From Escherichia coli (GTDB lineage Bacteria > Pseudomonadota > Gammaproteobacteria > Enterobacterales > Enterobacteriaceae), in the NCBI RefSeq assembly GCF_050320075.1, contig NZ_CP190018.1: DNA of 64,000 bases; one strand, written 5' to 3'. The position numbers were made by a program, and so were the translations under genes. Under the pieces are notes generated by a model. It had not been told where the DNA came from and ran no database searches. It was given only the letters and a program-made list of their open reading frames with translations. Shown here piece by piece: positions 7,026-45,871 of the stretch (position 1 is its first letter; the number at the start of each line of letters is the position of its first letter).

Positions 7026-7169
7026 TTCTCCCGATTTCCTCAATTGCAATGAACCCGATGACCTGCGCATCGGGTTTTTTATTTCAGTTTCGCGGCGGGT
7101 GGCATCAGCAATAAAGTTTCCCCCTTCCTTGCCGATAACGAGATCAACTTGTTTTCAGGAAGGTGCCTT

Positions 7170-19853: not shown

Positions 19854-20609
<756 letters not shown>

Positions 20610-20655
20610 TTTTTACCGTTGCATCATGTCGCCCAATATGATGCTTGCTCGTACC

Positions 20656-20688
20656 AGGCCCCTGCAATTTCAACAGGGGCCTTTTTTT
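20656..20688 (+). terminator. Rho-independent terminator after cutC
   Basis: Stem AGGCCCCTG/CAGGGGCCT followed by T7. Confidence 0.8.
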
Positions 20689-27130: not shown

Positions 27131-27189
27131 TCAAGGTCTAAATGCACTACATGGGCACCTAAACATATACATGTGATGTTGAGGTGTTA

Positions 27190-27210
27190 GAAAGGGGGCT
27201 GTTCAGCCCC
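27190..27210 (-). terminator. Rho-independent terminator for the 306-aa leftward gene
   Basis: On minus strand GGGGCTGAACAGCCCC hairpin followed by CTTTCT, immediately after the stop at 27219. Confidence 0.7.
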
Positions 27211-27218
27211 TGATAGAC

Positions 27219-28139
27219 TTAGTAATTATCCCTGACAACTTCATCATATCTTTCAATGAAGGTTAGTTGTTTATTACTTCCATTATAACTATCAACCCAT
27301 TTGTCTACAGCTTCATCGAATAGAAATAAAAAATCCGTATAATTTATATACACTACATTATCATAATATTGGGTTGGGTGACCTCTTTTACATACAGCAA
27401 TACTAAGACGTCTTTCTTTACCCTGAGTAACTTTGTGTGAATTAAGATTAGTCATGTGAAGCAATGAGTTCCTTAATTCATATAATTCGTCGGAAGTTAC
27501 TCCAAGTTTTTGTATATCTGAGTATGTATCTAACCAATTTTGAAAGACTCTTCTTTTGTTTCCAAACTCAATATAAGCTATAGTATCAATAAATGACATT
27601 AATAGCTTGAAGCTTGACAAGTAATGTTTTTTGTTAAACAGAAGCTTTATTGGTTCCATATGGTCATCATTAAGAAGTTCCTTAATGTGAAAACCATCAT
27701 CTTTCATATACTTATCAAGATAGTCTGGCAAGTCTTTTACACCTTCAATGTGATAGTTAGGTGTGTGCTTATTCCTTAATTGCTCTGACATTGATAACTG
27801 AATATCATATTGTAATTTGCCTTTAACAACGGGGGTGACTATAGCTAAAGGGTTTTCAGGTGCATTTTGAGCTTCTAATGCTAATTCAAACGGAGCAAAA
27901 GGATTACCAATCCGCAAATTTGCATTATATCTTTCAAGTGTCAATTTGTCATTTTCTAAAACAGAAGGGTGTATCCCATAAAATAAACGACAAGAAGCTA
28001 AGTCAATCTCCAAATTCCGCTTTAAAAAATCTAATTTTTGCGCATCATCGCCATCATGTTCGTGAGGTACTATTCCGGCATGTGTGATATGAACTCCATC
28101 AGGACTAAAGCAAAATATGTTGTAGATAATCTCTTTCAT
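27219..28139 (-). CDS. Hypothetical 306-aa protein, AT-rich, counter-oriented accessory gene in the element; has one R-x4-H (RNSLLH) motif
   Basis: Uninterrupted ORF with ATG start, own terminator, transcribed opposite to the rest of the element; no family recognised by eye. Confidence 0.6.
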   Translation of the reverse strand: MKEIIYNIFCFSPDGVHITHAGIVPHEHDGDDAQKLDFLKRNLEIDLASCRLFYGIHPSVLENDKLTLERYNANLRIGNPFAPFELALEAQNAPENPLAIVTPVVKGKLQYDIQLSMSEQLRNKHTPNYHIEGVKDLPDYLDKYMKDDGFHIKELLNDDHMEPIKLLFNKKHYLSSFKLLMSFIDTIAYIEFGNKRRVFQNWLDTYSDIQKLGVTSDELYELRNSLLHMTNLNSHKVTQGKERRLSIAVCKRGHPTQYYDNVVYINYTDFLFLFDEAVDKWVDSYNGSNKQLTFIERYDEVVRDNY

Positions 28140-28400
28140 ACCATTCTAACCTTCAGTGAAAATAAAGTTTTAACTATCATTAGATTATGAACAATCACAA
28201 TTGGCCTGTAAATAACAGGGCATAAACAGGTTCGTTTAGCTTGATTTTATCACTATAACTGTCTGATTTAACGGTAACTCACCAAGTATACACACAGTAA
28301 TTACACAATCCTGTTATTATGTAACTTATTGAAATATATAAATAATTTTTACATTCTTTGTTTGGGGTAAGCTGTGTAATGTTAGTCGTCCCTCTCCAGA

Positions 28401-28414
28401 CACTATATATAGTG
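28401..28414. promoter_or_regulatory. Perfect 14-bp palindrome CACTATATATAGTG in the 1.1 kb ORF-free spacer
   Basis: Read directly; embedded in a run of TATATA-containing repeats. Confidence 0.4.
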
Positions 28415-29102
28415 CTATATACAGGACTATATAACGATATATAGATGTTTGGTCACATGGTATAACTATCAAACCACTTAACGATTTCCTACGTGAAAGT
28501 TAGAAAGTGATAGTTATAGTTACCTTGTCAAATCTTCGTAGTCCCTTCTTAAAAAATCGTGAAAGGTAATCTTGTTATCTATACAGAATCTACGTAGATG
28601 CTTCTTAGTGCGCAAAACAGCTATTATGTTAAAAACGCACTGTATACGTATCAGTACTGATTTATAAGGGTTTTGTGTATTGGCTGATAAGAGGCTATAC
28701 AGCACCTTGAGAGCATGTCTTCTAAGTCATTGACATATAAGGTCACAGAAGTTTGTAGCTGTTACAGAGAAAACTGGATAGGACTTCACAGAACTATAAA
28801 ATGTTACAGCTATTGATAGGTGAAATCTTCTTGATAGATGCTTTGAAGTGTGGTGAAGGCTTTTTGAGGTGGGGCTAAACAGATATCATGAAGAAAGTCA
28901 ATAGTTGATTCGGTTTATCGAATAAACCTCATAGATATTTTAAAATTCTGCAAAGGGGGTCACATAGCTGGTGTGACGGGTACTTAGCAGCTACAGACAT
29001 CTATCAGATATTTTTGAAGATTTTTAGAAGGGGAATTTGAAGAGGGGCTACTACGATTTTATAAAAATTTTCAGATTCTGAAAAGTTACTGTACAGAATA
29101 TG

Positions 29103-29127
29103 TACAGATATCTTTAAAGTATCTGTA
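29103..29127. promoter_or_regulatory. Inverted repeat TACAGATA-N9-TATCTGTA (candidate operator) upstream of the MTase gene
   Basis: Read directly; adjacent direct repeats GTACAGA(A/T)AT and GATATCC x2. Confidence 0.4.
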
Positions 29128-29249
29128 AAAACTTTTAAGATAAAAGATAGATATCCCAGAAAGGATATCCGTTTAGAAAACCTATTAAGTATCTCTTAAA
29201 AGAGAGTAAACCTTGTCAAGAGTGATTGCAATAAAAATTTTTATTTCTT

Positions 29250-29912
29250 ATGTCAATTGAGTGTATTTTAATCGGGAAACATCATGGGGGTTCTGATTAC
29301 TGGAGAACTCCATTTTTGTTATTTAAGAACTTACACCGTGAATTTATTTTCAGTCTGGATGGTGCTGCAACTAAGCACGATACGTTATTACCCCGCTTTA
29401 CGGATGATATTCACAATCAGTCATGGGATGGTGAACGGGTATTCTGTAACCCACCATACAGCGACACTAAAACATTCCTCGTAAAAGCGTCTGAGGCAGA
29501 TTTATCGGTATTCCTGATACCGTACCGACCCCAAACCATATACTGGCTTAAGCACATCTTCACAAACCCGCTTTGCCATGAAATCCGTATTCTTCATCGT
29601 GCAGTTAAATACCTTCCACCAGCAGGGCATAACAGGCTTACTATTAGGTCGCCGTTTCCAAGTGCAGTCGTTGTTTTTAAAAAAGAACCACGCAGGCATG
29701 AAATTACGCAGATGGTTTGCTGTGCTGATACATTGCTACCGTTAACCATCATTAACAGAGGAGGCTTGAGAGGAAGGCCCACCATTTACCCACCTGAGAC
29801 GCTCGACAGCTTCATAAAACTATACAGGCAAGGCAAACCCATTAAGTGCATTGCAGATGCTCTCAGAATGCCTCTGAGCACGTCATACAGGATTGCTCAA
29901 AGGTTGAGCTAG
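29250..29912 (+). CDS. Phage-type DNA N6-adenine methyltransferase (Dam family) with C-terminal HTH-like tail
   Basis: SDYWRTPF...FSLDGAA...FCNPPY motifs typical of phage Dam MTases; C-terminal GRP...IADALRMPLSTSYRIAQRL resembles an HTH. Confidence 0.75.
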   Translation: MSIECILIGKHHGGSDYWRTPFLLFKNLHREFIFSLDGAATKHDTLLPRFTDDIHNQSWDGERVFCNPPYSDTKTFLVKASEADLSVFLIPYRPQTIYWLKHIFTNPLCHEIRILHRAVKYLPPAGHNRLTIRSPFPSAVVVFKKEPRRHEITQMVCCADTLLPLTIINRGGLRGRPTIYPPETLDSFIKLYRQGKPIKCIADALRMPLSTSYRIAQRLS

Positions 29913-30052
29913 AATTCTCATAAATATGGTCATTTACAAGACAGGTGATTTAGATATTAAGAGGTATCCCTGTGAACAATAAATGACCAATCAGTAATTA
30001 TCCTGTGAAATAATTGTTGCAATTTATAATCACACATGGTATAGTTTCATAG

Positions 30053-30197
30053 TGGACTGATAAAAAAGTTCATGTCTTGAAGTGGTAACACTTGGGGAGG
30101 TGTCAGATGATTGACGTATATTAACCTCTCATTCATGGTAATACCTCAGCGTTTTAATCATCGTACTGTTTCAGGCATGGACTTCTTTATCAGTCCA
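30053..30197. promoter_or_regulatory. 145-bp segment bracketed by a perfect 12-bp inverted repeat (TGGACTGATAAA / TTTATCAGTCCA) upstream of the initiator gene
   Basis: Read directly at 30053-30064 and 30186-30197. Confidence 0.4.
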
Positions 30198-30276
30198 TCA
30201 ATCCCCCAGATATTTTAATCACACAGGCTAATCGGTTTTATCCGGTTGGCCTTTTCACGTATGAGGTAATTTATGA

Positions 30277-31245
30277 ATGAAAAAAGAAACTAATGCTTTT
30301 ATTATGGTAGATAAACGAGTTGCACAATTCCCTAAAACATTAAAGCCAATTGACCGCTTGGTATATTTCACTATGCTGGATGGTGCTGATTATTACGAAT
30401 CTAAGTTCGGGAGATACGCACCAAGTATTGACTATTTGATGGTTATGTCTGGTGCTACACGTAATACAGTTATTGATTCACTTAAGAGACTTGAGTCACA
30501 CAGACTTATCGAAAAGACCAATGTAAAGGGTCAGCAAAGTATTTTTAAAGTATTCACGTTGGATGAGCGTCCAGAGGTCTTATCAGAACCTACCCTTGAT
30601 GAGCGTCGTAGAGCTAAATTATCAGGTCAACCAGAATCTGACAGTAACCCAACCAAAAATTGGTTACCTACCCAACCAGAATTTGGTTACCTACCTAACC
30701 AGAATTTGGTTACATGTAATACTGAATATAAAGACAAAAATATAAATACTGAAGAAGAAAGACTAAAAGGGAACTTTGAAGAAGAATCTCTTAAGAAGGG
30801 AGCTTCGCTCTGTGATTCACATGAATGTGATATTAAAGAAGATGACTTTCTTTCTTTGGATGAATTAAATGATTTTCTCTCTATGAATGAATCTGGCCTT
30901 GATAGTGAAGCTACTAAAGAGGCTGTTAAAAAGGAAGATAAAATCTCTGATGTGAATATCGATAGTGACCATAAAAACACACAGTGCCCCGCCACTGATG
31001 ATGAGATGGACCCCTTCGATGATTACCTTGATGAAGAGTCAGAGCGTGAAAAAGCCATTAAGAGGGTAGAGAAGAAAAAGAGATTCGAGCTTGCAAGACA
31101 AAAGAACAAAGTATCGGGTTTAGACCCATTCGATGACAGTGACGATGATGACTTTTCTTTCACACCAAGAAAGAAACAAACTCAGGATGACAAGAAGCAA
31201 AAAATTAAACCGAAGATGTATTTTGCTGGTGGAGGTATGCGCTAA
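30277..31245 (+). CDS. Putative replication initiator / replisome organiser (N-terminal winged-helix-like domain, acidic C-terminal tail)
   Basis: N-terminus resembles phage initiator DNA-binding domains; tandem iterons inside the ORF; highly acidic low-complexity C-terminal half. Confidence 0.55.
   Translation: MKKETNAFIMVDKRVAQFPKTLKPIDRLVYFTMLDGADYYESKFGRYAPSIDYLMVMSGATRNTVIDSLKRLESHRLIEKTNVKGQQSIFKVFTLDERPEVLSEPTLDERRRAKLSGQPESDSNPTKNWLPTQPEFGYLPNQNLVTCNTEYKDKNINTEEERLKGNFEEESLKKGASLCDSHECDIKEDDFLSLDELNDFLSMNESGLDSEATKEAVKKEDKISDVNIDSDHKNTQCPATDDEMDPFDDYLDEESEREKAIKRVEKKKRFELARQKNKVSGLDPFDDSDDDDFSFTPRKKQTQDDKKQKIKPKMYFAGGGMR
30641..30714. repeat. Tandem 23-bp direct repeats (iterons) inside the initiator ORF: TTGGTTACCTACC(C/T)AACCAGAAT
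   Basis: Two full units at 30660-30682 and 30683-30705 (1 mismatch) plus flanking partial units. Confidence 0.8.
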
Positions 31246-31541
31246 TGAAAGAATATCACGGTGAAAAGAGATACAAAGATTACCTGTTAAAGCGTTATAG
31301 CATTTCTCGTGAAGGCCACTTAATGAAGGATACTCACGGGGAAGTTTACCGGATTAGACCGAAGAAAGAAGGGAGGGATTATTTCTTTTACGATGGTGTG
31401 ACAGATTTAAAGATTGATGCTTTGAAGTTTGCGGCGCTGTATCATTATGATATCTGGGACTCAGTCCACCAGCTACGATTAAAAGACGGTGACCCCGGTA
31501 ATCTGAGGGCCACCAATATTATCAAGGGAAAGTGCCGGTAA
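31245..31541 (+). CDS. Small HNH_3/NUMOD4-like protein (98 aa), catalytic His not evident
   Basis: YSISREGHLMKDTHGEVYRIRPKKEGRDYFFYDG...LKDGDPGNLRATN resembles NUMOD4/HNH_3 layout; overlaps initiator stop. Confidence 0.45.
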   Translation: MKEYHGEKRYKDYLLKRYSISREGHLMKDTHGEVYRIRPKKEGRDYFFYDGVTDLKIDALKFAALYHYDIWDSVHQLRLKDGDPGNLRATNIIKGKCR

Positions 31542-31864
31542 GTCCACCAGCTATTTATTTATTGAAATCTCTATCTCAACACGAAGAAGTTTAAGTCGAA
31601 TTGTAAGCTTTGTCTTTTTTGTAATGACTCGATTCATAACGCAAAACACCAATAGCACAATAAATACCGCAAAGCCCAACGAGCTAAAACGATGAGATTC
31701 AATAATTGCTGTGAAAAAATCATGCATTAATTTTCCTTTTGCGAAAGGAAACAGCACCTGTATCAGCCCCTATAACCATAATATCATGTAAATGAGATGT
31801 TGACAATATGTTAAATAAATGTTATGATTGTAGTATGAGTAAGAGATTTAAGGAGATTTTTACA

Positions 31865-32155
31865 ATGACTCACACAGTTACGCGCCTTTTGCCAGAGGCA
31901 TTTGAACGACTGGCAGCAATCAAAGCCAAATATCCCGATATGAAGCACACAGCGCTTGTTGGAGAGCTTTTAAAAGAGTCGGTAACCCTGACCCCTTTCG
32001 ATAACGTTAAGGGCGTTGCAGAGGGTTCTAAGGCCATCAGAATCACAACGGACCAACTGGAACTACTCAAAGCACAGTCCGCAGTAGCAGGTTGCTCAAT
32101 GATTCAGGTGTTAAGCGCAAAGGTCCATCAATTAGCGGATAGGCTGGGGGTTTAA
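31865..32155 (+). CDS. Hypothetical small protein (96 aa)
   Basis: AAGGAG RBS 8 nt upstream of ATG at 31865; ORF-track start at 31808 is probably an extension; stop overlaps next gene (TAATG). Confidence 0.5.
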   Translation: MTHTVTRLLPEAFERLAAIKAKYPDMKHTALVGELLKESVTLTPFDNVKGVAEGSKAIRITTDQLELLKAQSAVAGCSMIQVLSAKVHQLADRLGV

Positions 32156-32580
32156 TGCTATGCACATTTGATTATCATGCGTTTTATCGCCATAGAGGCC
32201 ACCTTGTCCGTGAGAATAGCGGAACATGGAAAGATTTAACTCGTAATGCTGAACCCTTCACACACCAGCAATTAAAATCCCGCTTCTCCAGATGGAAGAA
32301 TGCACCAGCAGATACTGGTGATTTTGAGATTATCCATACCTTCGATTATGCCTCAGAAGATGACCTTCACGATGCAATTAAGCTGATTGAAGACTTCAAT
32401 ACCTCAGAAGATGTGGATGGTGACAAATATAAATCCCGTGGTAACCGCTATAACCGTGATGATATCACTCAGGCCATAAATGCTGGTCAATCTCAGCGAT
32501 ACATTACAGAAAAATATGGTATTTCACGGAGACAGTATTTCTACGTTAAATCATTGATTAATAAAGACAATTCAAAATAA
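32155..32580 (+). CDS. Hypothetical protein (141 aa) with C-terminal HTH-like segment
   Basis: Translationally coupled to upstream gene; C-terminus ...QSQRYITEKYGISRRQYFYVK resembles a Hin/resolvase-type HTH. Confidence 0.5.
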   Translation: MLCTFDYHAFYRHRGHLVRENSGTWKDLTRNAEPFTHQQLKSRFSRWKNAPADTGDFEIIHTFDYASEDDLHDAIKLIEDFNTSEDVDGDKYKSRGNRYNRDDITQAINAGQSQRYITEKYGISRRQYFYVKSLINKDNSK

Positions 32581-32741
32581 CCATCTCAGTAACGGTAGAA
32601 TGCACTTTACAGGCAGAGTTGCACCTTAATTTGATAAATTACCTTACCAGCCAGTGCAACTCCCTCTGTAACCCGCATGATTACTGGTCTCAGAATGGCT
32701 ATTTTAAGAGGTCTGAGATGTGTTTTGTAGGAGATTTAAAA

Positions 32742-33065
32742 ATGAACAACTTCCCATTACAGATTTTCGTTGATAACGACACCGCTATGATGGTGCAAAG
32801 CTTCAGTGATGCAGGTATTAGCATTGATTTTGACAGGCTGTTAAAGCTAATGGCTGATAATGAAGAAAACGTCTCTGACTTTATTCACTCGGTGGAGTTT
32901 AACGAGCCTCGAATGATGTTACCAATTACAGACAGTAATATGAAAAGATTGGTTATTGAGCAAACGAACAAATACAGTATTTCCCCAGAGCAATTTTTGA
33001 AAGGTGCTGTGACAATCCTGTACAGCGATAATATTTTGGTTACGGATTCCGTGAGGGTTCACTAA
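32742..33065 (+). CDS. Hypothetical small protein (107 aa)
   Basis: GGAG-type RBS before ATG at 32742; ORF-track start at 32619 is probably an extension. Confidence 0.45.
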   Translation: MNNFPLQIFVDNDTAMMVQSFSDAGISIDFDRLLKLMADNEENVSDFIHSVEFNEPRMMLPITDSNMKRLVIEQTNKYSISPEQFLKGAVTILYSDNILVTDSVRVH

Positions 33066-33359
33066 TGGGCTTAATAATTGCTTGGACGTTGCTTGGCTTA
33101 TTTGTTGGTTGCTGGGTAGGCAGCACAGTAAATAGAAATTGATGTTACCAATCTGTTAAAAAGCTGTTGACAAATAACCTTAAGCATGAGATGATGGTAA
33201 TAGGGGAGAGCAACTCTCTCTTATTTTTCTTTCAAAATAATCCGATGGATGGATATTCTGAATTGGAAAGGTGCAATGCTTTTCGTCATGGCCTTTCAGT
33301 TTAGTCTGAGAGGCTATCTCAAAAAGTGCTTAATCATTCATTGAACCCTTTACAGCTTT

Positions 33360-33387
33360 GCCCTAACTCATGATTAGGGCTTTCTTT
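33360..33387 (+). terminator. Rho-independent terminator-like hairpin
   Basis: Stem GCCCTAA/TTAGGGC with 7-nt loop followed by TTTCTTT. Confidence 0.55.
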
Positions 33388-33456
33388 AAGAGTTTTTAAA
33401 CAGAGCTTTTAAAGAAAGTTTTTCCTGAAACTTCGTTAACGTTAAAGCAAACCTTC

Positions 33457-33520
33457 AAAGCCCTTCACAGATGAGGATGATTCCATGAATATCCGAATCA
33501 CCTATGTTTAGGGCTTTTTT
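33457..33520 (+). ncRNA. Long-loop hairpin with U-tract (candidate small RNA 3' end or attenuator)
   Basis: Outer stem AAAGCCCT/AGGGCTTT enclosing inner GGAT/ATCC stem, followed by T6. Confidence 0.3.
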
Positions 33521-33636
33521 CAGCTTTTAAAAAGCATACTTGGCAAACGCCTTTTAAGCCTCTTCTAAGTTCGAGGATGTCAGGTGTGCTTTTTAAAAAC
33601 TGAAACATAAATTATCTTAGAAGAGGAAAGGTATTA

Positions 33637-34341
33637 ATGGCTATCCGTGATGAAAATGAAATGATTATTGAAAACAAACCAAGTGCACTTGATATTCACG
33701 AATTAAGTTTGCGTGAATCTTTTGATAGAGCTTGGCGGGAATCACACGAAGTAAATAAAGGTCCATATATTCCACCAGAACCACTCGAGATTCCAAGAGT
33801 TGAAATTGATTTTTCTATGAACGAACGGTGTGAACTTGATTTGAAGTTGAAGCTACAACGCCGATATTTCCAAGCTATTAAAGACTCTCAAGAAGCAATG
33901 AGAAGTGTTTATGAGAAAATTCAGTCCAAGCTTGAAGACGAAATTGACGAAATGGCTATTTTGATGGAGCTTCAAACCAATCCTTATGCTTATTTCTCTC
34001 GACTAGACCGTGACGGTTGGGGGTATGACCCTGTAGAGATTGGTAAAGTGATTGCAGATTTACCAGAAGGTCAAAGGGTTATTCGTACGGAAAGGGCCAT
34101 CAGAGCGCCACATCAACTGTCTCTAATTGTTGCTGATAAATCACAAGCTGAGCTTGAAGAAATTGCCAAAGAGAAACTGATGAAAGCAAGAGAAAATGAG
34201 ATTAATTTGCTGAAATCAAGACTGGCTAAGCTGATTAGTGACCATCAAGCGCTGGCTAAGGAGTACCGTCAAGAGTTGGCACAGATTATCAGCTTCAATG
34301 ATTTTCTGAGTGTTCCACGAGAATTTAGCAAGGCTGTTTGA
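33637..34341 (+). CDS. Hypothetical protein (234 aa), charged coiled-coil-rich
   Basis: ORF with ATG and GAGG-type RBS; no family recognised. Confidence 0.55.
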   Translation: MAIRDENEMIIENKPSALDIHELSLRESFDRAWRESHEVNKGPYIPPEPLEIPRVEIDFSMNERCELDLKLKLQRRYFQAIKDSQEAMRSVYEKIQSKLEDEIDEMAILMELQTNPYAYFSRLDRDGWGYDPVEIGKVIADLPEGQRVIRTERAIRAPHQLSLIVADKSQAELEEIAKEKLMKARENEINLLKSRLAKLISDHQALAKEYRQELAQIISFNDFLSVPREFSKAV

Positions 34342-34364
34342 TTATGAATTAAAAGAGGTGATTA

Positions 34365-34583
34365 ATGTATGAAGACCGTTTGGAAACTATCAAGGCAGTT
34401 TGTGAAAAACTTAAAAACCAACCACGTAAACCAAAAACGGTAAAGAGTAAGCATCAGCCTGTCACCTCAAACAGCAAAATAAAGATTCGCAAAATTCCTT
34501 CGTGGTGCATTGACCGTATTCCGGTTGGTTCAAGAATTATTCGTGAAGATGGTGATTATCATTGGGTATCAGTTGTTGGTTAG
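34365..34583 (+). CDS. Hypothetical small basic protein (72 aa)
   Basis: RBS GAGGTG before ATG; gene-dense context. Confidence 0.45.
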   Translation: MYEDRLETIKAVCEKLKNQPRKPKTVKSKHQPVTSNSKIKIRKIPSWCIDRIPVGSRIIREDGDYHWVSVVG

Positions 34584-34671
34584 TTAGTAAAAATCTACGG
34601 GAGAGATTATCGAGTGATATCGGTAGCTCTCCCTTTTTCGTATATGAACACTTAAGAGGTGAAAAATATGA

Positions 34672-36804
34672 ATGAGCAAATTCACAGTTGATAGTTTTAT
34701 CGTTGAATTAAGCTTCAATGAAAACATTATTAAGGGCTTGCAAAGAGTTGAAAAGGCAGCTTTGCAGTCAGCACAAAGAATTGAAAAGAACCTAAATAAA
34801 GGTTTCAGGATTAATACAAAGCAGCTTGATAGTAATTTAACGGCTTCTTTAGGGCAGCTTGAAAGGAAGTTTAATAAGGCCTTTGACAAGATTGAACAGA
34901 GAGCAAGAAATACTAAAGCTTTCCAGTTTACCACCAGATTTAATGACACTGTTAATCCTCCAAAACAACCGAGACAGCCACGAATTAGCGGCAACAGAGC
35001 AATCACAGCAGCTTACTCAGCGAATATGAGCAAGCTAAAAGGCTTTGACCCTATTTTGCAGAAATACATCAAATCTCAGTTTTACGGGCTATCTGCTAAA
35101 GCCGGTTCAATGGATTCTTCAAAATTCAATGAGAAGTTAGCTCAGTTAAACGCTTCAGTCAGAGAAGCAATTGCTAAAGCCAGAGGTCATACATCCACCA
35201 GCATTAATGGTGACAGAGCAGCTAATAGTCTTGATAACCTGTCTTCAGCAGCAGTTAAAACAGCAGGTGCATTTATCTCAATGCAGGCTGTATTAGCCAG
35301 TTATCAGAAGATTATGGAAATTGGTTTACAGCGTGCAAGTGCTGAACGTTCAATTGATTTCGTATTTGATAAAGATGCAGGTCAAGTAAAAGAGTTCACA
35401 AAGTCATTAGCTCAAACAACGGGTTTAGATATCGCTGAACTGCAATCACAGTTTGCTGGTTTTGGTGCTTCAGCTAAAGAGTCTATGGGCATTCAAGGTT
35501 CTGAAGAACTTTTTAAAAATATGATTGGCTATGCTCGTCTGATGGGGAGAAGTGAAGAAGAGATTAAGCGAGCACTGACAGCATTATCACAGATGGCTGG
35601 TAAGGGTCAGGTTATGGCTGAAGAGCTTAAGGGGCAATTAGCTGAAGCTGTTCCTGGTATGGTTCAGGTATTCGCTAAAGCAACCGGAAGGAATGAACAA
35701 GAGCTATTTGATGCCATGAAGAAGGGGGCTTTAAAATCTGCCGATACTCTTCAGAAGGTCACTCAGGAACTGAATAAACAAATCACCGCTAAAGGTGGCT
35801 GGAAAGCTATTTCAGAAAGTACACAGGCACAACTAGGGAACCTGAAAAACTCTTGGAATACCACGCTTGATAGTATCTTCAGAGGTTCTGAAGATGGTCT
35901 GCAAGATTTTACAAGAAGCTTAACAACGCTTTTAAACGCTCTTGGTGGAAGTGGTAAAAGTCTTGGTGAATCTCTTGGTAGTCTCATGACTTCTATGTCA
36001 CATGGTGTCGATTCATTGACTGATATCAGCTACAGGGTAAGAGCATTCTTCGATGAGGTGACATTAGCTTACCGTTCACTAAATGACACTCAGAAAAAAA
36101 TTGTTGATGGTTTATCTGATGGGTTAATTGATGGTTTGAAGATGCTTGCCGTAGCTGTTACTGCTCAAAAGGCTGCAAATGTAGCTGGAGGCTTGTTAAA
36201 CCTTGCAAATGCTGTTACTTCATTCGGTGATGCTGTTAATAAAGCTAAAGCTGGCAAGGCTGGTTCTTCAGGTGGTGCGCTAAATAAAGTTGGTAGAGTT
36301 GTTCTTTATGCTGAGTTGGTGAACTTTGCTCTTGATAATTTAAACCCTGAAGCGGCTAAGAATCCGAACTTACACCAATCAGGTATTGGAACAGAGACAA
36401 ACTTCAACCCTGAATACAAAGGCGATTCATCTAAACCAAACCAAATTAATGATGGATGGGCTAAGATTGGTAGTTCTATCGCTGACTGGTTTAATGGTGC
36501 GGCTAATAAAATTGCTAACTTCCAAGACCCGATGAATAACTTTGTTAATAACACACAATCAACTCCACCAGCTATCACAGGTGACATGGTTAATAGCAAT
36601 GCTCAACTTGCTATGGCTGTATCAGAGTTAGGAAGAAAGGTAGACGCTTTAACAGTAGAAGCTAAGAAGCCTTTATCAGTTAATATCAAAGGTGAAGCAA
36701 TTGTTAGACCGGATGAACCAGCTTTCTTTACTTTCAATCAATCAGCTAATGACCAGTTCACGCAGGATATGCTCTTAAGTTCAAGCTATCCAGAGGAAGA
36801 ATGA
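34672..36804 (+). CDS. Tape-measure-domain-like protein (710 aa)
   Basis: Central segment ...MAEELKGQLAEAVPGMVQVFAKATGRNEQELFDAMKKGALKSADTLQKV... resembles the conserved phage tape-measure domain; Ala/Gly/Ser-rich low-complexity C-terminal part. Confidence 0.55.
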   Translation: MSKFTVDSFIVELSFNENIIKGLQRVEKAALQSAQRIEKNLNKGFRINTKQLDSNLTASLGQLERKFNKAFDKIEQRARNTKAFQFTTRFNDTVNPPKQPRQPRISGNRAITAAYSANMSKLKGFDPILQKYIKSQFYGLSAKAGSMDSSKFNEKLAQLNASVREAIAKARGHTSTSINGDRAANSLDNLSSAAVKTAGAFISMQAVLASYQKIMEIGLQRASAERSIDFVFDKDAGQVKEFTKSLAQTTGLDIAELQSQFAGFGASAKESMGIQGSEELFKNMIGYARLMGRSEEEIKRALTALSQMAGKGQVMAEELKGQLAEAVPGMVQVFAKATGRNEQELFDAMKKGALKSADTLQKVTQELNKQITAKGGWKAISESTQAQLGNLKNSWNTTLDSIFRGSEDGLQDFTRSLTTLLNALGGSGKSLGESLGSLMTSMSHGVDSLTDISYRVRAFFDEVTLAYRSLNDTQKKIVDGLSDGLIDGLKMLAVAVTAQKAANVAGGLLNLANAVTSFGDAVNKAKAGKAGSSGGALNKVGRVVLYAELVNFALDNLNPEAAKNPNLHQSGIGTETNFNPEYKGDSSKPNQINDGWAKIGSSIADWFNGAANKIANFQDPMNNFVNNTQSTPPAITGDMVNSNAQLAMAVSELGRKVDALTVEAKKPLSVNIKGEAIVRPDEPAFFTFNQSANDQFTQDMLLSSSYPEEE

Positions 36805-36967
36805 TTTCTTATATATCCGTGTGCTACGTGATTTCTTCTGAACAGATATACCCACTAAAAATTATTTTTTACGTAGCTCACGCTTAACAGAGAAAATACT
36901 TATATATCAAAGGCTTGGTTAAAAATGATTAAAATACACTAAGCCTTTGAAATCAAAGGAGAATTTA

Positions 36968-37741
36968 ATGATTTACTCTAATCAGATTCGTTACAGTGGT
37001 AAAGATGGCGTTTACTTTCATCTACAAGGCCAGCCAGATAATTTCTTGTCACTATCAGCTACTGAGAACATGGAATTTGACAGCCCTATGATGGTTACCA
37101 CTCAAAATATGCAATCAGGGCAGACTGTCACAGATAATGTAATGCGTTCACCCAGAACTATTTCAATCAGTGGTGTGGTTGTAGTTGGTGAATCCGGTAG
37201 TATCCTTATCTCAAGAGATAATAAGCTGGTGGAAAACTTCATAGACACTCTTGAAAACTGGCGTGACCAGAAGCAAATTATCTCAGTTGTCTGTAAAGAT
37301 GGTATTAAGATTGACGACTCAATTATTACAAACTTTAAAGCCTCTAAAGATGTTGGTATTGCCAATGGTCTTAGAATCCAATTAACTTTTCAGGAAATTA
37401 ACTTTAAAGCTATTGTGGGTCAGACTGATATCTCGGCTGCGACCGGAAGGACTTCTACCACAAGTGATGGTGGTGCTACCAGTAAAAAGAATACAGGGAA
37501 CACTACGACAAGCTTAGGTAACGGTATGTTGATGTGTCAGGAGCTATATAATCGCTCTACGAGTGAACTTACTAATGAGCAACTTCAAGCCCGTATCAAT
37601 TGTGGTAAAAATGTCAGAGTTAAGAACGGAAAAAGCACCTTCTCAGATGCCGCTAATGAGCAAGCTTCAAAGGTGCTTAATAATGCTGGTACAGGTAGTA
37701 CTTTGAAGAAGTATTCTGTTAATCCTAACAAGCGATACTGA
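36968..37741 (+). CDS. Hypothetical protein (257 aa), possible virion/tail-associated
   Basis: AAGGAG RBS before ATG at 36968 (ORF-track start 36947 is TTG); directly follows the tape-measure-like gene. Confidence 0.45.
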
Positions 37742-37755
37742 CGATAGAATCTCAA

Positions 37756-39279
37756 CTATATGATAACCTCATCAACATCTATTAAACCCCTCTCAGTGAC
37801 TTCAGAAAGCGACTGTATAGCCTCTGTAACGTTGTCTGAGGGGTTTTCTGTTATTGGTAAGGTGATTGCTTTACCGTTGTGAAAAGTTACTTTACAGCGA
37901 CGTTTAGCAGTATTTAAAACGACCTCTTTAACAGCACTTTTGATTATCAGTTGTGCTTCAATCCTTCCCGCCTTTGTAGTCAAGTCACAATCAGACAAAC
38001 AACCCACATCAATAGATTTAAGGCGTTGTGTCTCCTTCTCGATATCCGCATCAACTTGTGATAGCTCATTCTTTAGTTGTCTTAGTTTGCTGGTAATAGC
38101 GGACAAGTCTTCAATTTCAAGTGATAGCTGTACCAGCTTTTCAATATTGCTTGAGATGTGTTCACGGTGTAGCTTCAGTGTGTCTATGGTATTCGTCATA
38201 TCGCTATCAAATCGGTCAAGACGAGATAGCAGGGCAAGCAATGTACCATCGGTTTGCTTACGTGAAAGTCCTTTAGCACTACAACGGTTTTCATTACGAA
38301 GAGGACAACGATAAATCCCGTTTCTTGTATCGCTAAAGCCTGTGATAATCAAAGCATGACCACATTCAGAACAACGGATAACACCTTTGAAAAGATTCAC
38401 AGCCATTGGCTTATCTGAAGCAGGTTTTCTACCGTAACGAGCATATGATAGTTGTTGAACTTTGTAGAATGTTGTTTCATCTATAATTGCAGGATAATAA
38501 CCAGATATCTCCTCACAGCCTTTAGGTGTGAAGTAACCAATTACAGAGCGATTCTTCAAAAGGTCTTGCACTGAGGTTTGACCAAACTTACCTGCTTTGT
38601 ACTGGTTAAGCGTCTGGTGACCTTCAGCATTAAGAGTTCTGACAATCTCCCAGATAGACTTACCCTCTAACCGTAGCTGAAAGCACCTCTTCACAGTCTC
38701 CACTTTCTCAGGTATCACAGAGAAGCTTTTACGGTCATCATTAAGCTTAAGCCATGCAGGACAACGCCTAGAAATCTTGATACCAGCTTTAGCAGCTTCT
38801 TTCTTTGCATCCCATGCAGCTTGTATACGCTCAGCCTTACGTAATGATTCCTCATGCGCCCTTTGCATTATCAAAATGCTTTTAATCAGAGCTAACGGGT
38901 CTTTAAGAGATTCCCTTGTGTAATGTTCACCATCGGACAGGGTGACTACATCTACACCAGAGCGAAGAATGTTTCTGAGTAGCTCACTTGCTTGGTCTAC
39001 GTCCTGACGTGAGAGACGGTCTAAACTCTCGATTAGTAGTGTATCACCAGCTTTAACAAGCCCTTTCTCGATAGCGGTTAAAAAGTCACCTAAGCCACCT
39101 TTCAAGTGCTTACCAGTGAACCCGCTAACGCCTAAATCACGAAAAGTAAGGGATTCATCCAGATAGTACTCAGGATGAGCCTTAAGCCAATCAGTGACCA
39201 TCTTAGCCTGTCGTCTTAATGAGTCGCCTCTGGATTGCTTCTCAGATGAAAACCGGATGTAACTGATTGCACGTTTCAT
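37756..39279 (-). CDS. Large serine recombinase (integrase)
   Basis: 507 aa; N-terminal resolvase-type catalytic domain (YIRFSSEKQ with catalytic Ser), recombinase domain, Cys-rich zinc ribbon (CSECGH...YRCPLRNENRC), C-terminal coiled coil; adjacent to attR. Confidence 0.9.
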   Translation of the reverse strand: MKRAISYIRFSSEKQSRGDSLRRQAKMVTDWLKAHPEYYLDESLTFRDLGVSGFTGKHLKGGLGDFLTAIEKGLVKAGDTLLIESLDRLSRQDVDQASELLRNILRSGVDVVTLSDGEHYTRESLKDPLALIKSILIMQRAHEESLRKAERIQAAWDAKKEAAKAGIKISRRCPAWLKLNDDRKSFSVIPEKVETVKRCFQLRLEGKSIWEIVRTLNAEGHQTLNQYKAGKFGQTSVQDLLKNRSVIGYFTPKGCEEISGYYPAIIDETTFYKVQQLSYARYGRKPASDKPMAVNLFKGVIRCSECGHALIITGFSDTRNGIYRCPLRNENRCSAKGLSRKQTDGTLLALLSRLDRFDSDMTNTIDTLKLHREHISSNIEKLVQLSLEIEDLSAITSKLRQLKNELSQVDADIEKETQRLKSIDVGCLSDCDLTTKAGRIEAQLIIKSAVKEVVLNTAKRRCKVTFHNGKAITLPITENPSDNVTEAIQSLSEVTERGLIDVDEVII

Positions 39280-39346
39280 TGTTCACCTCACCAATAGCAG
39301 TTGGGCTTGTACCAACCCCTAGATTGTATCGCTTTAGATGGTGTAT

Positions 39347-43084: not shown

Positions 43085-43825
43085 ATGGCAGGTCATAGTA
43101 AATGGGCCAACACCAGACATCGTAAAGCTGCGCAGGATGCTAAGCGCGGTAAAATCTTCACTAAAATCATTCGTGAGCTGGTAACCGCGGCTAAGCTGGG
43201 CGGTGGTGACCCGGACGCTAACCCGCGTCTGCGTGCAGCAATTGATAAAGCATTGTCTAACAACATGACCCGTGACACTCTGAACCGCGCAATTGCACGT
43301 GGTGTGGGCGGTGATGATGATGCAAACATGGAAACCATCATCTACGAAGGTTACGGTCCTGGCGGCACGGCAATCATGATTGAATGTCTGTCTGACAACC
43401 GCAACCGTACCGTTGCTGAAGTGCGTCATGCATTCAGCAAATGTGGTGGTAACCTCGGTACTGATGGTTCCGTAGCCTATCTGTTCAGCAAAAAAGGCGT
43501 GATCTCCTTCGAGAAAGGCGATGAAGACACCATCATGGAAGCAGCTCTGGAAGCGGGTGCTGAAGACGTTGTGACCTATGATGACGGCGCGATTGACGTC
43601 TACACTGCATGGGAAGAAATGGGTAAAGTACGCGACGCTCTGGAAGCGGCAGGTCTGAAAGCAGACAGCGCGGAAGTTTCCATGATCCCGTCCACCAAAG
43701 CTGATATGGATGCTGAAACCGCACCGAAACTGATGCGTCTGATCGATATGCTGGAAGATTGCGACGACGTGCAGGAAGTCTACCATAACGGTGAAATCTC
43801 CGATGAGGTTGCAGCGACTCTCTGA
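43085..43825 (+). CDS. yebC: YebC/PmpR-family transcriptional regulator
   Basis: 246 aa [27 protein letters not shown]... Confidence 0.95.
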
Positions 43826-45259: not shown

Positions 45260-45871
45260 GTGATAGGCAGACTCAGAGGCATCATCATTGAAAAACAACC
45301 CCCGCTGGTGTTAATTGAAGTGGGCGGCGTAGGCTATGAAGTGCATATGCCGATGACCTGTTTTTATGAACTCCCTGAAGCGGGTCAGGAAGCGATCGTT
45401 TTCACCCACTTTGTGGTGCGTGAAGACGCGCAACTGCTGTACGGTTTTAACAATAAACAAGAGCGCACATTGTTCAAAGAGTTGATCAAAACCAACGGCG
45501 TCGGCCCGAAGTTAGCGCTGGCGATCCTCTCCGGAATGTCAGCGCAGCAGTTCGTTAATGCCGTTGAGCGTGAAGAAGTGGGGGCACTGGTGAAACTGCC
45601 GGGTATTGGCAAAAAAACCGCCGAACGCTTGATTGTTGAAATGAAAGACCGATTTAAAGGTTTGCATGGCGATCTCTTTACGCCAGCCGCCGACCTGGTA
45701 CTCACGTCTCCTGCCAGCCCGGCGACCGACGATGCTGAACAAGAAGCGGTTGCCGCGCTGGTGGCGCTGGGCTATAAACCACAAGAAGCAAGCCGCATGG
45801 TGAGCAAAATCGCTCGCCCTGACGCCAGCAGTGAAACATTAATTCGCGAAGCCCTACGCGCCGCGTTATGA
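45260..45871 (+). CDS. ruvA: Holliday junction branch migration protein RuvA (GTG start)
   Basis: 203 aa [28 protein letters not shown]... Confidence 0.95.

Follow-up and report, generated by a model that had tools for sequence, protein, structure and literature searches.

A conserved promoter and predicted structured, terminated leader RNA upstream of the tail genes of a putative phage satellite in Escherichia coli

The subject of this study is a gap of about 540 bp (positions 33100-33636) in a stretch of 64,000 nucleotides (nt) of Escherichia coli DNA (contig NZ_CP190018.1), referred to as the window. The window is chromosomal, with MicL at 20381-20688 and C0465 at 7045-7122 in an Rfam scan, and strain YZLc1-3 is 100% identical to it. 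In the window the gene yecE (DUF72) is split by an island of ~12.2 kb (about 27135-39340), and the gap lies within this island, between a set of small genes and a tail module. Very probably, judging from its sequence and that of its relatives, the gap holds a promoter and specifies a structured, terminated plus-strand RNA. The explanation that we favour, at what we consider about an even chance, is that the tail-gene operon has its regulated promoter and its transcribed leader in the gap; this operon would comprise the genes for a 234-aa protein, a 72-aa protein, the tape measure and a gp74/Dit-like protein.

On the island, the minus strand carries the gene for a 306-aa protein; further products are a Dam-like methyltransferase with a helix-turn-helix and a lambda-O-like replication initiator (rep), whose gene contains three iterons of 23 bp (30647-30715). 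There is also the set of small genes, which is followed by the gap. The tail module consists of the 234-aa protein, the 72-aa protein, a 710-aa tape measure and a 264-aa Dit-like protein, and a 507-aa large serine recombinase is also present; capsid and terminase genes are absent from the Pfam and PHROG annotation of the island proteins. The large serine recombinase, the O-like Rep with its in-gene iterons, the lack of capsid and terminase genes, and the Felixounavirus-like tape measure and Dit-like protein together give the island as a whole the appearance of an undescribed satellite of virulent myoviruses of the Felix O1 type. Searches of the literature for the element, for its sequence and for satellites of Felix O1 found no description.

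The gap is present in 477 of 5426 complete E. coli genomes, at 70-100% identity, and is never annotated. A first set of 18 gaps (the window and 17 relatives found by BLAST or protein search) was aligned, and because the 20-mer GAAAGGTGCAATGCTTTTCG (33266-33285) is identical in all 18, it was used as an exact search probe. Among 100,044 species genomes the probe found E. albertii, an Escherichia sp. and one metagenome bin labelled Eubacteriales, and it also retrieved 13 viral contigs and 99 metagenome contigs. The resulting set, with one chance match removed, comprises 110 distinct 605-nt versions; since most of them were chosen with the exact 20-mer, its invariance there holds by construction. 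In a comparison of 27 distinct elements over a span of 8 kb, conservation peaks at 33066-33366, with 0.78-0.87 of positions identical, whereas rep, the small genes and the 234-aa gene reach 0.1-0.4; elsewhere, only the tape-measure N-terminus and the Dit-like gene come near this level. In some relatives the downstream protein is down to 25-30% identity and the leader still retains 70-80% nucleotide identity. Rfam searches at gathering and permissive thresholds gave only noise, such as miRNA-like hairpin matches, and BLAST searches of plasmids and phages with the gap as query, up to E = 10, gave nothing relevant, with no DNA similarity among 50,697 phage records.

Promoter P (33167-33195, plus strand) combines TTGACA, a spacer of 17 bp and a TG-extended -10 element, GATGAT in the window (33190-33195), which together match at 10 of 12 positions and bear out the -35-like hexamer that the original prediction had placed at 33167; the inferred start is at ~33202-33203. 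Among the 110 variants, TTGACA-N17-CATAAT with the TG extension occurs in ~85%, the GATGAT type of the window accounts for 14, and 25 bp of the upstream flank are nearly invariant. A second -10-like hexamer (TATATA, TAATTA or GGTAAT) is found 2 nt past the -10 element in all alleles, a position unlike that of the -10-like pause element in lambda and phage 82. A promoter scan of the plus strand from 33196 to 33636 detected no other sigma-70-like promoter. A 27-nt mini-hairpin module, GAG(G)ATAGTCTTCTATCCGAAGTCTAT, has two insertion sites in different elements, just past the -10 element of P (e.g. in L012-L016) and, in other loci, between the downstream hairpin T3 (see below) and the Shine-Dalgarno (SD) sequence of the tape-measure gene; it behaves like a small mobile or recombining cassette.

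P carries an operator-like array of three repeats (33143-33175, plus strand; TGTTACCAA, TGTTAAAAA and TGTTGACAA) spaced by 11 bp at about -59, -48 and -37, which overlaps an A-rich UP-like tract and the -35 element. P is therefore probably not constitutive. The pattern TGTT-N7-TGTT-N7-TGTT, missed by Tandem Repeats Finder and found by a pattern search, has only two copies in the 64-kb window, one at 33143-33168 and one at the early promoter of the island, with 0.00 expected from shuffled sequences; in 1.09 Mb of related loci it occurs at only these two positions, plus one stray match. The early promoter (31798-31828, plus strand) has TTGACA at 31800, a 17-bp spacer and TATGAT at 31823, an 11/12 match, and its array (31798-31823) lies at about -37, -26 and -15, overlapping both -35 and -10, an offset kept in 33 related loci. 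Short repeats one helical turn apart that overlap a promoter are the arrangement of operators of the ribbon-helix-helix (RHH) type, with binding being putative here. We infer that P is co-regulated with the early promoter by an island-encoded DNA-binding protein. As a separate observation, 31778-31828 contains two strong promoter-like sites face to face (TTGACA-17-TATGAT on the plus and TTGTCA-17-TATTAT on the minus strand) and looks like the early control region of the island.

The candidate regulator is a 107-aa protein encoded directly upstream of P (32742-33065, plus strand), which is present in all 18 sequences compared (67-90% amino acid identity in 16 relatives, 29% in L017). It has no Pfam or PHROG match and is predicted to be a tandem RHH protein: its AlphaFold2 model (pLDDT 76.5) has an E-H-H-(H)-E-H-H topology, i.e. 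beta-alpha-alpha twice, and in the PDB its best, albeit weak, matches are to F-plasmid relaxosome chains of ~110 residues (E 0.03, prob 0.8, TM 0.41), which we take to be TraY. That this protein binds the TGTT array is a guess guided by the model. The first gene of the early operon (31865-32155, 96 aa in RefSeq), without a Pfam match, shows two beta-alpha-alpha-like segments by eye, and its product could be a second RHH-type regulator.

The original prediction treated the whole ~540 bp as non-coding, which does not hold for the first 77 nt. These are occupied by a conserved, unannotated open reading frame (ORF) of 25 codons (33065-33142, plus strand; MGLIIAWTLLGLFVGCWVGSTVNRN), which encodes one hydrophobic helix, starts at an ATG that overlaps the TAA stop of the 107-aa gene and is predicted to be translationally coupled to that gene. 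The ORF is intact in 18/18 aligned gaps, its variable sites favour the third codon position (13/11/20), and the peptide has 22 variants, including a different, unrelated 21-aa hydrophobic allele, MELVIICFVLIGMIAGASIKV, in some relatives. A role as a membrane toxin or holin-like protein is a possibility. A type I toxin-antitoxin pair was considered and rejected: the small RNA is on the same strand, and a scan for 9-mer complements of its conserved core, which took in the ORF region, found none there.

Downstream of P, the two hairpins of the original prediction and the repeats associated with them were recovered in the sequence, by the scans and by folding, and they turned out to be part of a longer series. 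A terminator scan over 5 kb gave seven terminator-like sites against 3.5 +/- 2.2 expected, and four of these fall in the gap, where they represent two hairpins, H1 and T1. Folding z-scores are -3.2 for 33202-33390 and -4.4 for 33388-33645, with 0 of 200 shuffles as stable. A G+C-rich hairpin followed by a U-tract on the transcribed strand, the signature of intrinsic terminators, is found at H1, T1, T2 and, further downstream, T3, and nearly every relative examined has one strong terminator or more. The hairpins are conserved in the comparison with 110 distinct relatives, and they covary. On this comparative evidence, and owing to conservation among relatives more than to the scan statistics, the features are conserved and functional-looking rather than the product of chance.

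H1 (33199-33235 with the hairpin at 33199-33225, plus strand like all the following elements) has 12 pairs formed by GGGGAGAG and CUCUCUCU, a GNRA-like loop and then a U-tract. Every element has H1 downstream of the promoter. An alignment of 103 sequences shows compensatory changes in 4/5 of its consensus pairs, and G.U outnumbers A.C in H1 by 31 to 0; the loop is mostly GNRA-like (GCAA, GUAA, GCGA or GUGA, then a pyrimidine). As predicted, H1 can both terminate the small-gene operon and form the 5'-terminal hairpin of the P transcript. The segment between H1 and the next hairpin, H2, is variable, with (GATG)2-6 plus optional small hairpin modules. The alignment contains two microsatellites, (GATG)n at 33244-33254 with 2-6 copies among relatives and (CATT)n at 33335-33342 with 1-4 copies, and their copy number alters the spacing between hairpins. 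H2 (33266-33285) is the conserved 20-mer, GAAAGGUGCAAUGCUUUUCG, drawn as a 7-bp hairpin with a GCAAU loop. It is followed by H3 (33288-33317), a 12-bp hairpin of ATGGCCTTTCAG and CTGAGAGGCTAT, of which all 31 sequence variants fold (10-13 bp, -10 to -20 kcal/mol). H3 was mis-aligned by MAFFT/RNAalifold on the raw core, and a stems-only alignment was used instead; in it, 97.3% of cells are paired vs 38-54% with the partners slid, 5/11 pairs show compensatory changes, and the covariation score is 0.416 vs 0.252, with 0/500 shuffles as high. G.U outnumbers A.C in H3 by 47 to 1.

T1 (33360-33387) is the canonical terminator hairpin of the original prediction: GCCCUAAC...UUAGGGC followed by UUUCUUU, the hairpin proper spanning 33360-33380, with the tail TTTCTTTAAG after it. 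It occurs in 18 variants of -10 to -14 kcal/mol. The U-tract of T1 is at the same time the 5' arm of H5 (33381-33418), a 13-bp hairpin of CUUUCUUUAAGAG and CUUUUAAAGAAAG with 15 variants (mean -13.9 kcal/mol), 37 G.U vs 0 A.C and compensatory changes from G-C to G.U. T1 and H5 occur together in 71-75 of 110 elements (about two thirds); in a short form, seen in 34/110, about 33352-33463 is lost as one block and T2 is kept. T2 (33457-33520), a strong intrinsic terminator (AAAGCCCU...AGGGCUUUUUU, U6), is present in long and short forms alike and is the long-loop hairpin described before, with AAAGCCCT (33457-33464) facing AGGGCTTTTTT (33510-33520). The inner GGAT/ATCC stem belongs to a loop insertion of ~30 nt in the window, where it reads GGAU/AUCC in the RNA, and such an insertion is found in ~10-20% of elements. 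The repeated motifs AGGGCTTT and AAAGCCCT, also noticed before, are the arms of the two terminators and make up direct repeat D18. A terminator-antiterminator switch between T1 and T2 was rejected: it is possible co-transcriptionally, but the minimum-energy fold keeps T2, and the cross-complementarity of T1 and T2 is trivial since their arms are duplicated.

Taken together, H1, H3, T1, H5 and T2 have 125 G.U against 1 A.C. In conjunction with the promoter and the U-tracts, this excess of G.U identifies the structure as that of a plus-strand RNA. It also bears on the idea that the gap is a DNA-level site, be it for cos/pac packaging, for replication or for recombination, as a hotspot kept at a module boundary. 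The gap does lie at a mosaic boundary, and several relatives examined have an HNH endonuclease gene a few hundred bp upstream of it, reminiscent of HK97-like phages, in which HNH genes adjoin cos. Compensatory changes in the arms and G.U on one strand only are, however, not expected of a palindrome that binds protein, and the gap has no DNA similarity to any of the 50,697 phage records. An origin of replication in the gap is rejected because the origin-like iterons (3 x 23 bp) are inside rep. We regard a DNA-level site as extremely unlikely.

Several other functions of the RNA were tried and rejected. As to coding, a 45-aa ORF with a TTG start (33167-33304) begins at the -35 hexamer itself, and the ATG ORFs at 33276 and 33288 are interrupted in relatives, through indels of 2 nt and 4 nt and, where other H3 alleles occur, through in-frame stop codons. 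By eye, a stretch of 444 nt contains ~7 CsrA-type GGA motifs, no more than chance would give, and the copies that read AGGAUG lack conservation. A search of 30 elements for cis targets of the conserved core found no complementary 9-mer elsewhere or at a fixed place.

A strong promoter followed by terminators yields a discrete RNA, and a reading in which this RNA, of about 185 to 320 nt, acts in trans on host or helper genes or titrates a protein is compatible with a leader function. The H2 20-mer, identical in every independently found copy and followed by a conserved tail, is what would be expected of a seed or protein-binding site, and the U6 end of T2 is a typical 3' end of a small RNA (sRNA). 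There is also a precedent: in Stx phages the always-active late promoter gives rise, by early termination, to the regulatory sRNA StxS (PMC7547250), a short late-promoter transcript with a function. However, the 30 elements scanned offer no target in the form of a 9-mer complement of the conserved core, no phage genome matches even at E <= 10, and a trans-acting RNA leaves the structures nearer the tail genes, i.e. H6, its anti-SD loop and T3, unexplained. We consider it a minority possibility and rather unlikely.

These structures begin directly after T2. H6 (33522-33601) is a 24-bp hairpin in the 5' untranslated region (UTR) of the 234-aa gene and the longest inverted repeat of the island (I1; arms of 24-28 nt, 33518-33605). 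Its allelic types A, B and C have very different sequences, and all form stems of 16-24 bp with -22 to -36 kcal/mol; G.U exceeds A.C by 207 to 42. The apical loop holds an anti-SD sequence, CCUCUUCUAAG (33559-33569), that is complementary to 33616-33626, the SD sequence CUUAGAAGAGG of the 234-aa gene, which is the first gene of the tail module and has its start codon at 33637 (SD and start codon, 33616-33639). This complementarity between the loop and an SD located about 50 nt downstream is found in each of types A, B, C and 'other', where CCTCTTCTAAG is matched by CTTAGAAGAGG, TTCACCTCT by AGAGGTGAA, CTTCTAAGTGT by ACACTTAGAGG and ATTCACCTC by GAGGTGAAT. Hence the pairing persists when both partners change, as in SD-sequestering structures. 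The duplex of a loop with its own SD has -14 to -18 kcal/mol, vs -8.3 +/- 2.8 with shuffled SD sequences and -9.6 to -15.4 across types. On these comparisons the H6 loop and the SD form a predicted covarying SD lock, which is formally a pseudoknot. With 22-24 bp and -25 to -36 kcal/mol, H6 also has the length of an RNase III substrate (about 20+ bp of near-perfect duplex, as for the sites in the lambda N leader and the T7 R sites) and is a possible target of this enzyme. The region has a natural knock-out in L135 (NZ_CP133811.1, strain EC2001), where an IS1 inserted in the gap has removed the promoter and the small-RNA part and only the H6 UTR is left before the 234-aa homologue.

T3 (34599-34638) is a terminator-like hairpin (GGGAGAGAUUAUCGA/UCGGUAGCUCUCCC, then U5) between the 72-aa and the tape-measure genes, 33 nt before the start codon of the latter. 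It was scored in 43 of 75 elements, the remainder being cut off by the 110-nt window used there, with -22 to -26 kcal/mol and compensatory alleles; its stem base, GGGAGAG/CTCTCCC, resembles H1. A transcript from P would therefore run into 2-3 intrinsic terminators on its way to the first gene, and into T3 ahead of the tape-measure gene. In sum, the gap is indeed structured, with the hairpins listed in the original prediction being real; H1, H2, H3, H6, the anti-SD/SD pairing and the downstream T3 had been overlooked.

Could the region be an ordinary operon junction, with H1 ending the small-gene operon, P as a normal promoter, T1 and T2 as leaky elements for stability or insulation, and structures that are conserved only for stabilising the mRNA? 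Terminator-like hairpins right before an SD and ATG are common in Felix O1-type operons whose genes are expressed, and H1 lacks its U-tract in several alleles, both of which would fit. Two to four consecutive terminators together with a covarying anti-SD loop nevertheless exceed what insulation needs, the gap is more conserved than most of the surrounding genes, and P has a specific repeat array in common with the early promoter. An ordinary junction is in our view improbable.

The favoured explanation, a regulated promoter and transcribed leader of the tail operon, would work as follows. An island-encoded DNA-binding protein, for which the adjacent 107-aa protein is the best candidate, would set the activity of P via the TGTT array. 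In uninfected cells transcription would stop at T1 or at T2, giving RNAs of about 185 or about 320 nt, so that only small RNA is made, and any leaky read-through would be translationally silenced by the anti-SD loop. Upon infection by a Felix O1-like phage the terminators would be read through, either by processive antitermination or by a helper-modified RNA polymerase, and the SD would be freed, e.g. by RNase III cutting H6, by the action of ribosomes or a protein, or through use of a start site beyond H6. In this way the tape measure of the satellite and its gp74 homologue would be made alongside the helper tail proteins. For the full read-through and unmasking switch we would put the chances slightly short of even. 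The original suggestion of a regulated transcription boundary, possibly with a small RNA, fits all the comparative evidence (promoter and operator, covarying hairpins, terminators), and its link to a helper or to SOS induction is one that we only infer.

It is important to set out what speaks against a regulated leader. The start site, the efficiency of the terminators and the read-through are predictions; the island has no Q- or N-like match in Pfam or PHROGs that would make an antiterminator candidate; and the terminated RNA could itself be the functional product. On the side of the regulator, the case for an RHH fold in the 107-aa protein is weak (E 0.03), and that it binds TGTT is a guess. 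Among the hairpins, H1 has its U-tract in some alleles only and lacks it in several; H2 is paired by RNAalifold and, being invariant, its pairing cannot be tested by covariation; and the stems-only alignment of H3 was itself derived from RNAfold hairpins. Finally, the relatives are all Escherichia, the exact 20-mer probe biases their set towards the H2 sequence, and hairpin variation comes down to a few alleles that recombine, so that independent compensatory events are few.

The link to Felix O1-type phages comes from the tail module. In Felixounavirus wV8 the tape-measure gene is followed by that of gp74, to which the Dit-like protein of the island is 70% identical; the island tape measure is ~30% identical to those of felixounaviruses; and the island genes are in an order that parallels wV8, where two chaperone genes precede those for the tape measure and gp74. 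No similarity to these chaperones is seen in the 234-aa protein, which also has no phage homologue and only sub-threshold coiled-coil-type matches in Pfam; RefSeq annotation (PGAP) labels some of its homologues (L012, L013, L135) 'transposase', a label that looks unsupported. The operons of wV8 are full of units composed of a hairpin, a T-tract, 10-30 nt, an SD and an ATG, and the same punctuation is seen in the island tail module. How transcription passes the many terminators of Felix O1 is not known according to its genome paper (PMC3185647). The early region of wV8 (8100-12700 of L137) has many annotated direct repeats, DR_1 to DR_9, each composed of a hairpin, ACTAAATAAAGTCC and an SD before a small gene, i.e. 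a repeated regulatory cassette in the putative helper. The upstream half of P matches the promoter of the wV8 morphogenesis unit at 27 of 31 positions, a weak lead with a local score of 30 vs 19.4 +/- 2.4 for shuffled sequences, whose maximum is 29. A T4-type late promoter, TATAAATA, was rejected as a helper signal, having only two copies in the 56 kb of wV8.

The H6 loop could alternatively act in trans, as an antisense to the tape-measure mRNA of the helper, with the result that the satellite tape measure replaces that of the helper. In type A the loop sequence CTCTTCTAAGTTCG (33560-33573) is a perfect 14-nt complement to positions -27 to -14 relative to the wV8 tape-measure start codon, this site is identical in four Felixounavirus genomes, and the translation start region of the 234-aa gene in the island resembles that of the phage tape measure. 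Against this, 14-mers shared between the gap and wV8 are near chance for AT-rich sequence (four matches of at least 14 nt within the 56 kb), the loop of type B resembles, in our reading, a generic anti-SD and that of type C pairs over no more than ~10 nt, and the SD in cis explains the H6 loop without a helper. A related pairing, between the start region of the tape-measure gene and its own 3' end, failed its test. In wV8 a region upstream of the tape-measure start (43230-43243, or 7231-7244 of L136) includes a 12-nt perfect complement to the 3' end of the same gene (45452-45463, or ~9453-9464 of L136), just before the gp74 SD, and a similar 9-nt pair is seen in the element of the window; the pairing is not conserved in 50 element variants, with -12.0 vs -10.6 +/- 3.0. 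Antisense action on the helper appears very unlikely. The more inclusive proposal is doubtful and, in our estimate, quite improbable: the leader would be the helper-sensing switch of undescribed E. coli satellites of virulent Felix O1-like phages, combining a helper-like promoter, terminators passed only with whatever carries the helper through its own many terminators, and an H6 loop that locks its own SD and also pairs with the helper tape-measure start, so that the satellite tape measure takes the place of the helper's.

Some further observations concern the element as a whole. A 25-nt-arm inverted repeat (I2; 30053-30197) lies just upstream of rep, its arms being 88% complementary and 95 nt apart. 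Related copies occupy many different chromosomal positions, in ~9% of complete E. coli genomes. A related metagenome contig, L037 (ERZ506742 NODE-633; 11,233 nt), has a 55-nt terminal direct overlap and assembles as a circle of ~11.2 kb, which suggests an excised or replicating form of the element, and many other metagenome contigs are 11-13.6 kb long, about the length of a whole element. A tRNA/tmRNA scan found none, and the Tai tail-interference systems were considered and are unrelated.

The conserved block of promoter and structured RNA is thus carried, without annotation or an Rfam family, by ~9% of complete E. coli genomes, and the 20-mer GAAAGGTGCAATGCTTTTCG provides a sequence marker for finding such elements. 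Felix O1-type phages are candidates for phage therapy and biocontrol. If the proposed leader function is true, the gap would be a compact, testable example of how a satellite silences its hijacking genes through stacked terminators and a masked ribosome-binding site, and it would offer a way to address how Felix O1 transcription passes its many terminators.

Each of several known systems has a part of this arrangement. PLE of Vibrio cholerae, a satellite of the virulent phage ICP1, is likewise a small island; it encodes a large serine recombinase and a replication initiator, lacks capsid and terminase genes and is linked to a virulent myovirus, a likeness of gene content. The E. coli island differs by its tape-measure and gp74-like tail genes, and its mobilisation is only putative. 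Leaders of the IncB/IncI-alpha repA/repZ type and ribosomal-protein operators share an upstream loop (~50 nt away) that pairs with the SD region and covaries. No antisense partner is known here, in contrast with the loop-RBS (ribosome-binding site) pseudoknots of IncB/IncI-alpha, and the setting is the tail operon of a phage satellite; moreover, since H6 pairs with the SD itself, it would be expected to repress rather than activate. The P4 CI and P1/P7 C4 RNAs (RF01695) are immunity RNAs that satellites and phages derive from leaders and that act through premature termination. They resemble the gap in that a satellite-type element makes a small structured RNA from an operon leader, with termination as the control point. 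The gap, however, does not match this family at the gathering score or at E <= 10, and 30 elements contain no internal complementary targets like seqA and seqC.

The PL-nutL-N region of lambda, too, has small GNRA-like hairpins near the 5' end (H1 and H2 both have GCAAU loops) and a long leader duplex just before the first gene, whose translation is controlled by the leader structure. A boxA such as that of the N nut site (CGCUCUUA) is not a constant feature of the gap, in which CUCUCUUA of the window occurs in some alleles only, and an N-like protein was not found in the island. Closest in logic is the lambdoid late switch of PR', 6S-StxS, tR' and Q. Here as there, a strong sigma-70 promoter lies directly upstream of structural genes, terminators follow within a few hundred nt, a short RNA is a by-product and the late genes need read-through. 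Membership in this class fails, since the island has no Q homologue (Pfam, PHROGs), no conserved boxA and no Rfam C4/CI match. Instead of Q, the adjacent gene encodes the 107-aa protein that models as a tandem RHH; the island has no sequence similarity to lambdoid phages, and its presumed helper is a virulent myovirus. The operator-like array, several tandem terminators and the SD lock set it further apart. The gap is a variant of control regions of known type, and the element that carries it is apparently undescribed.

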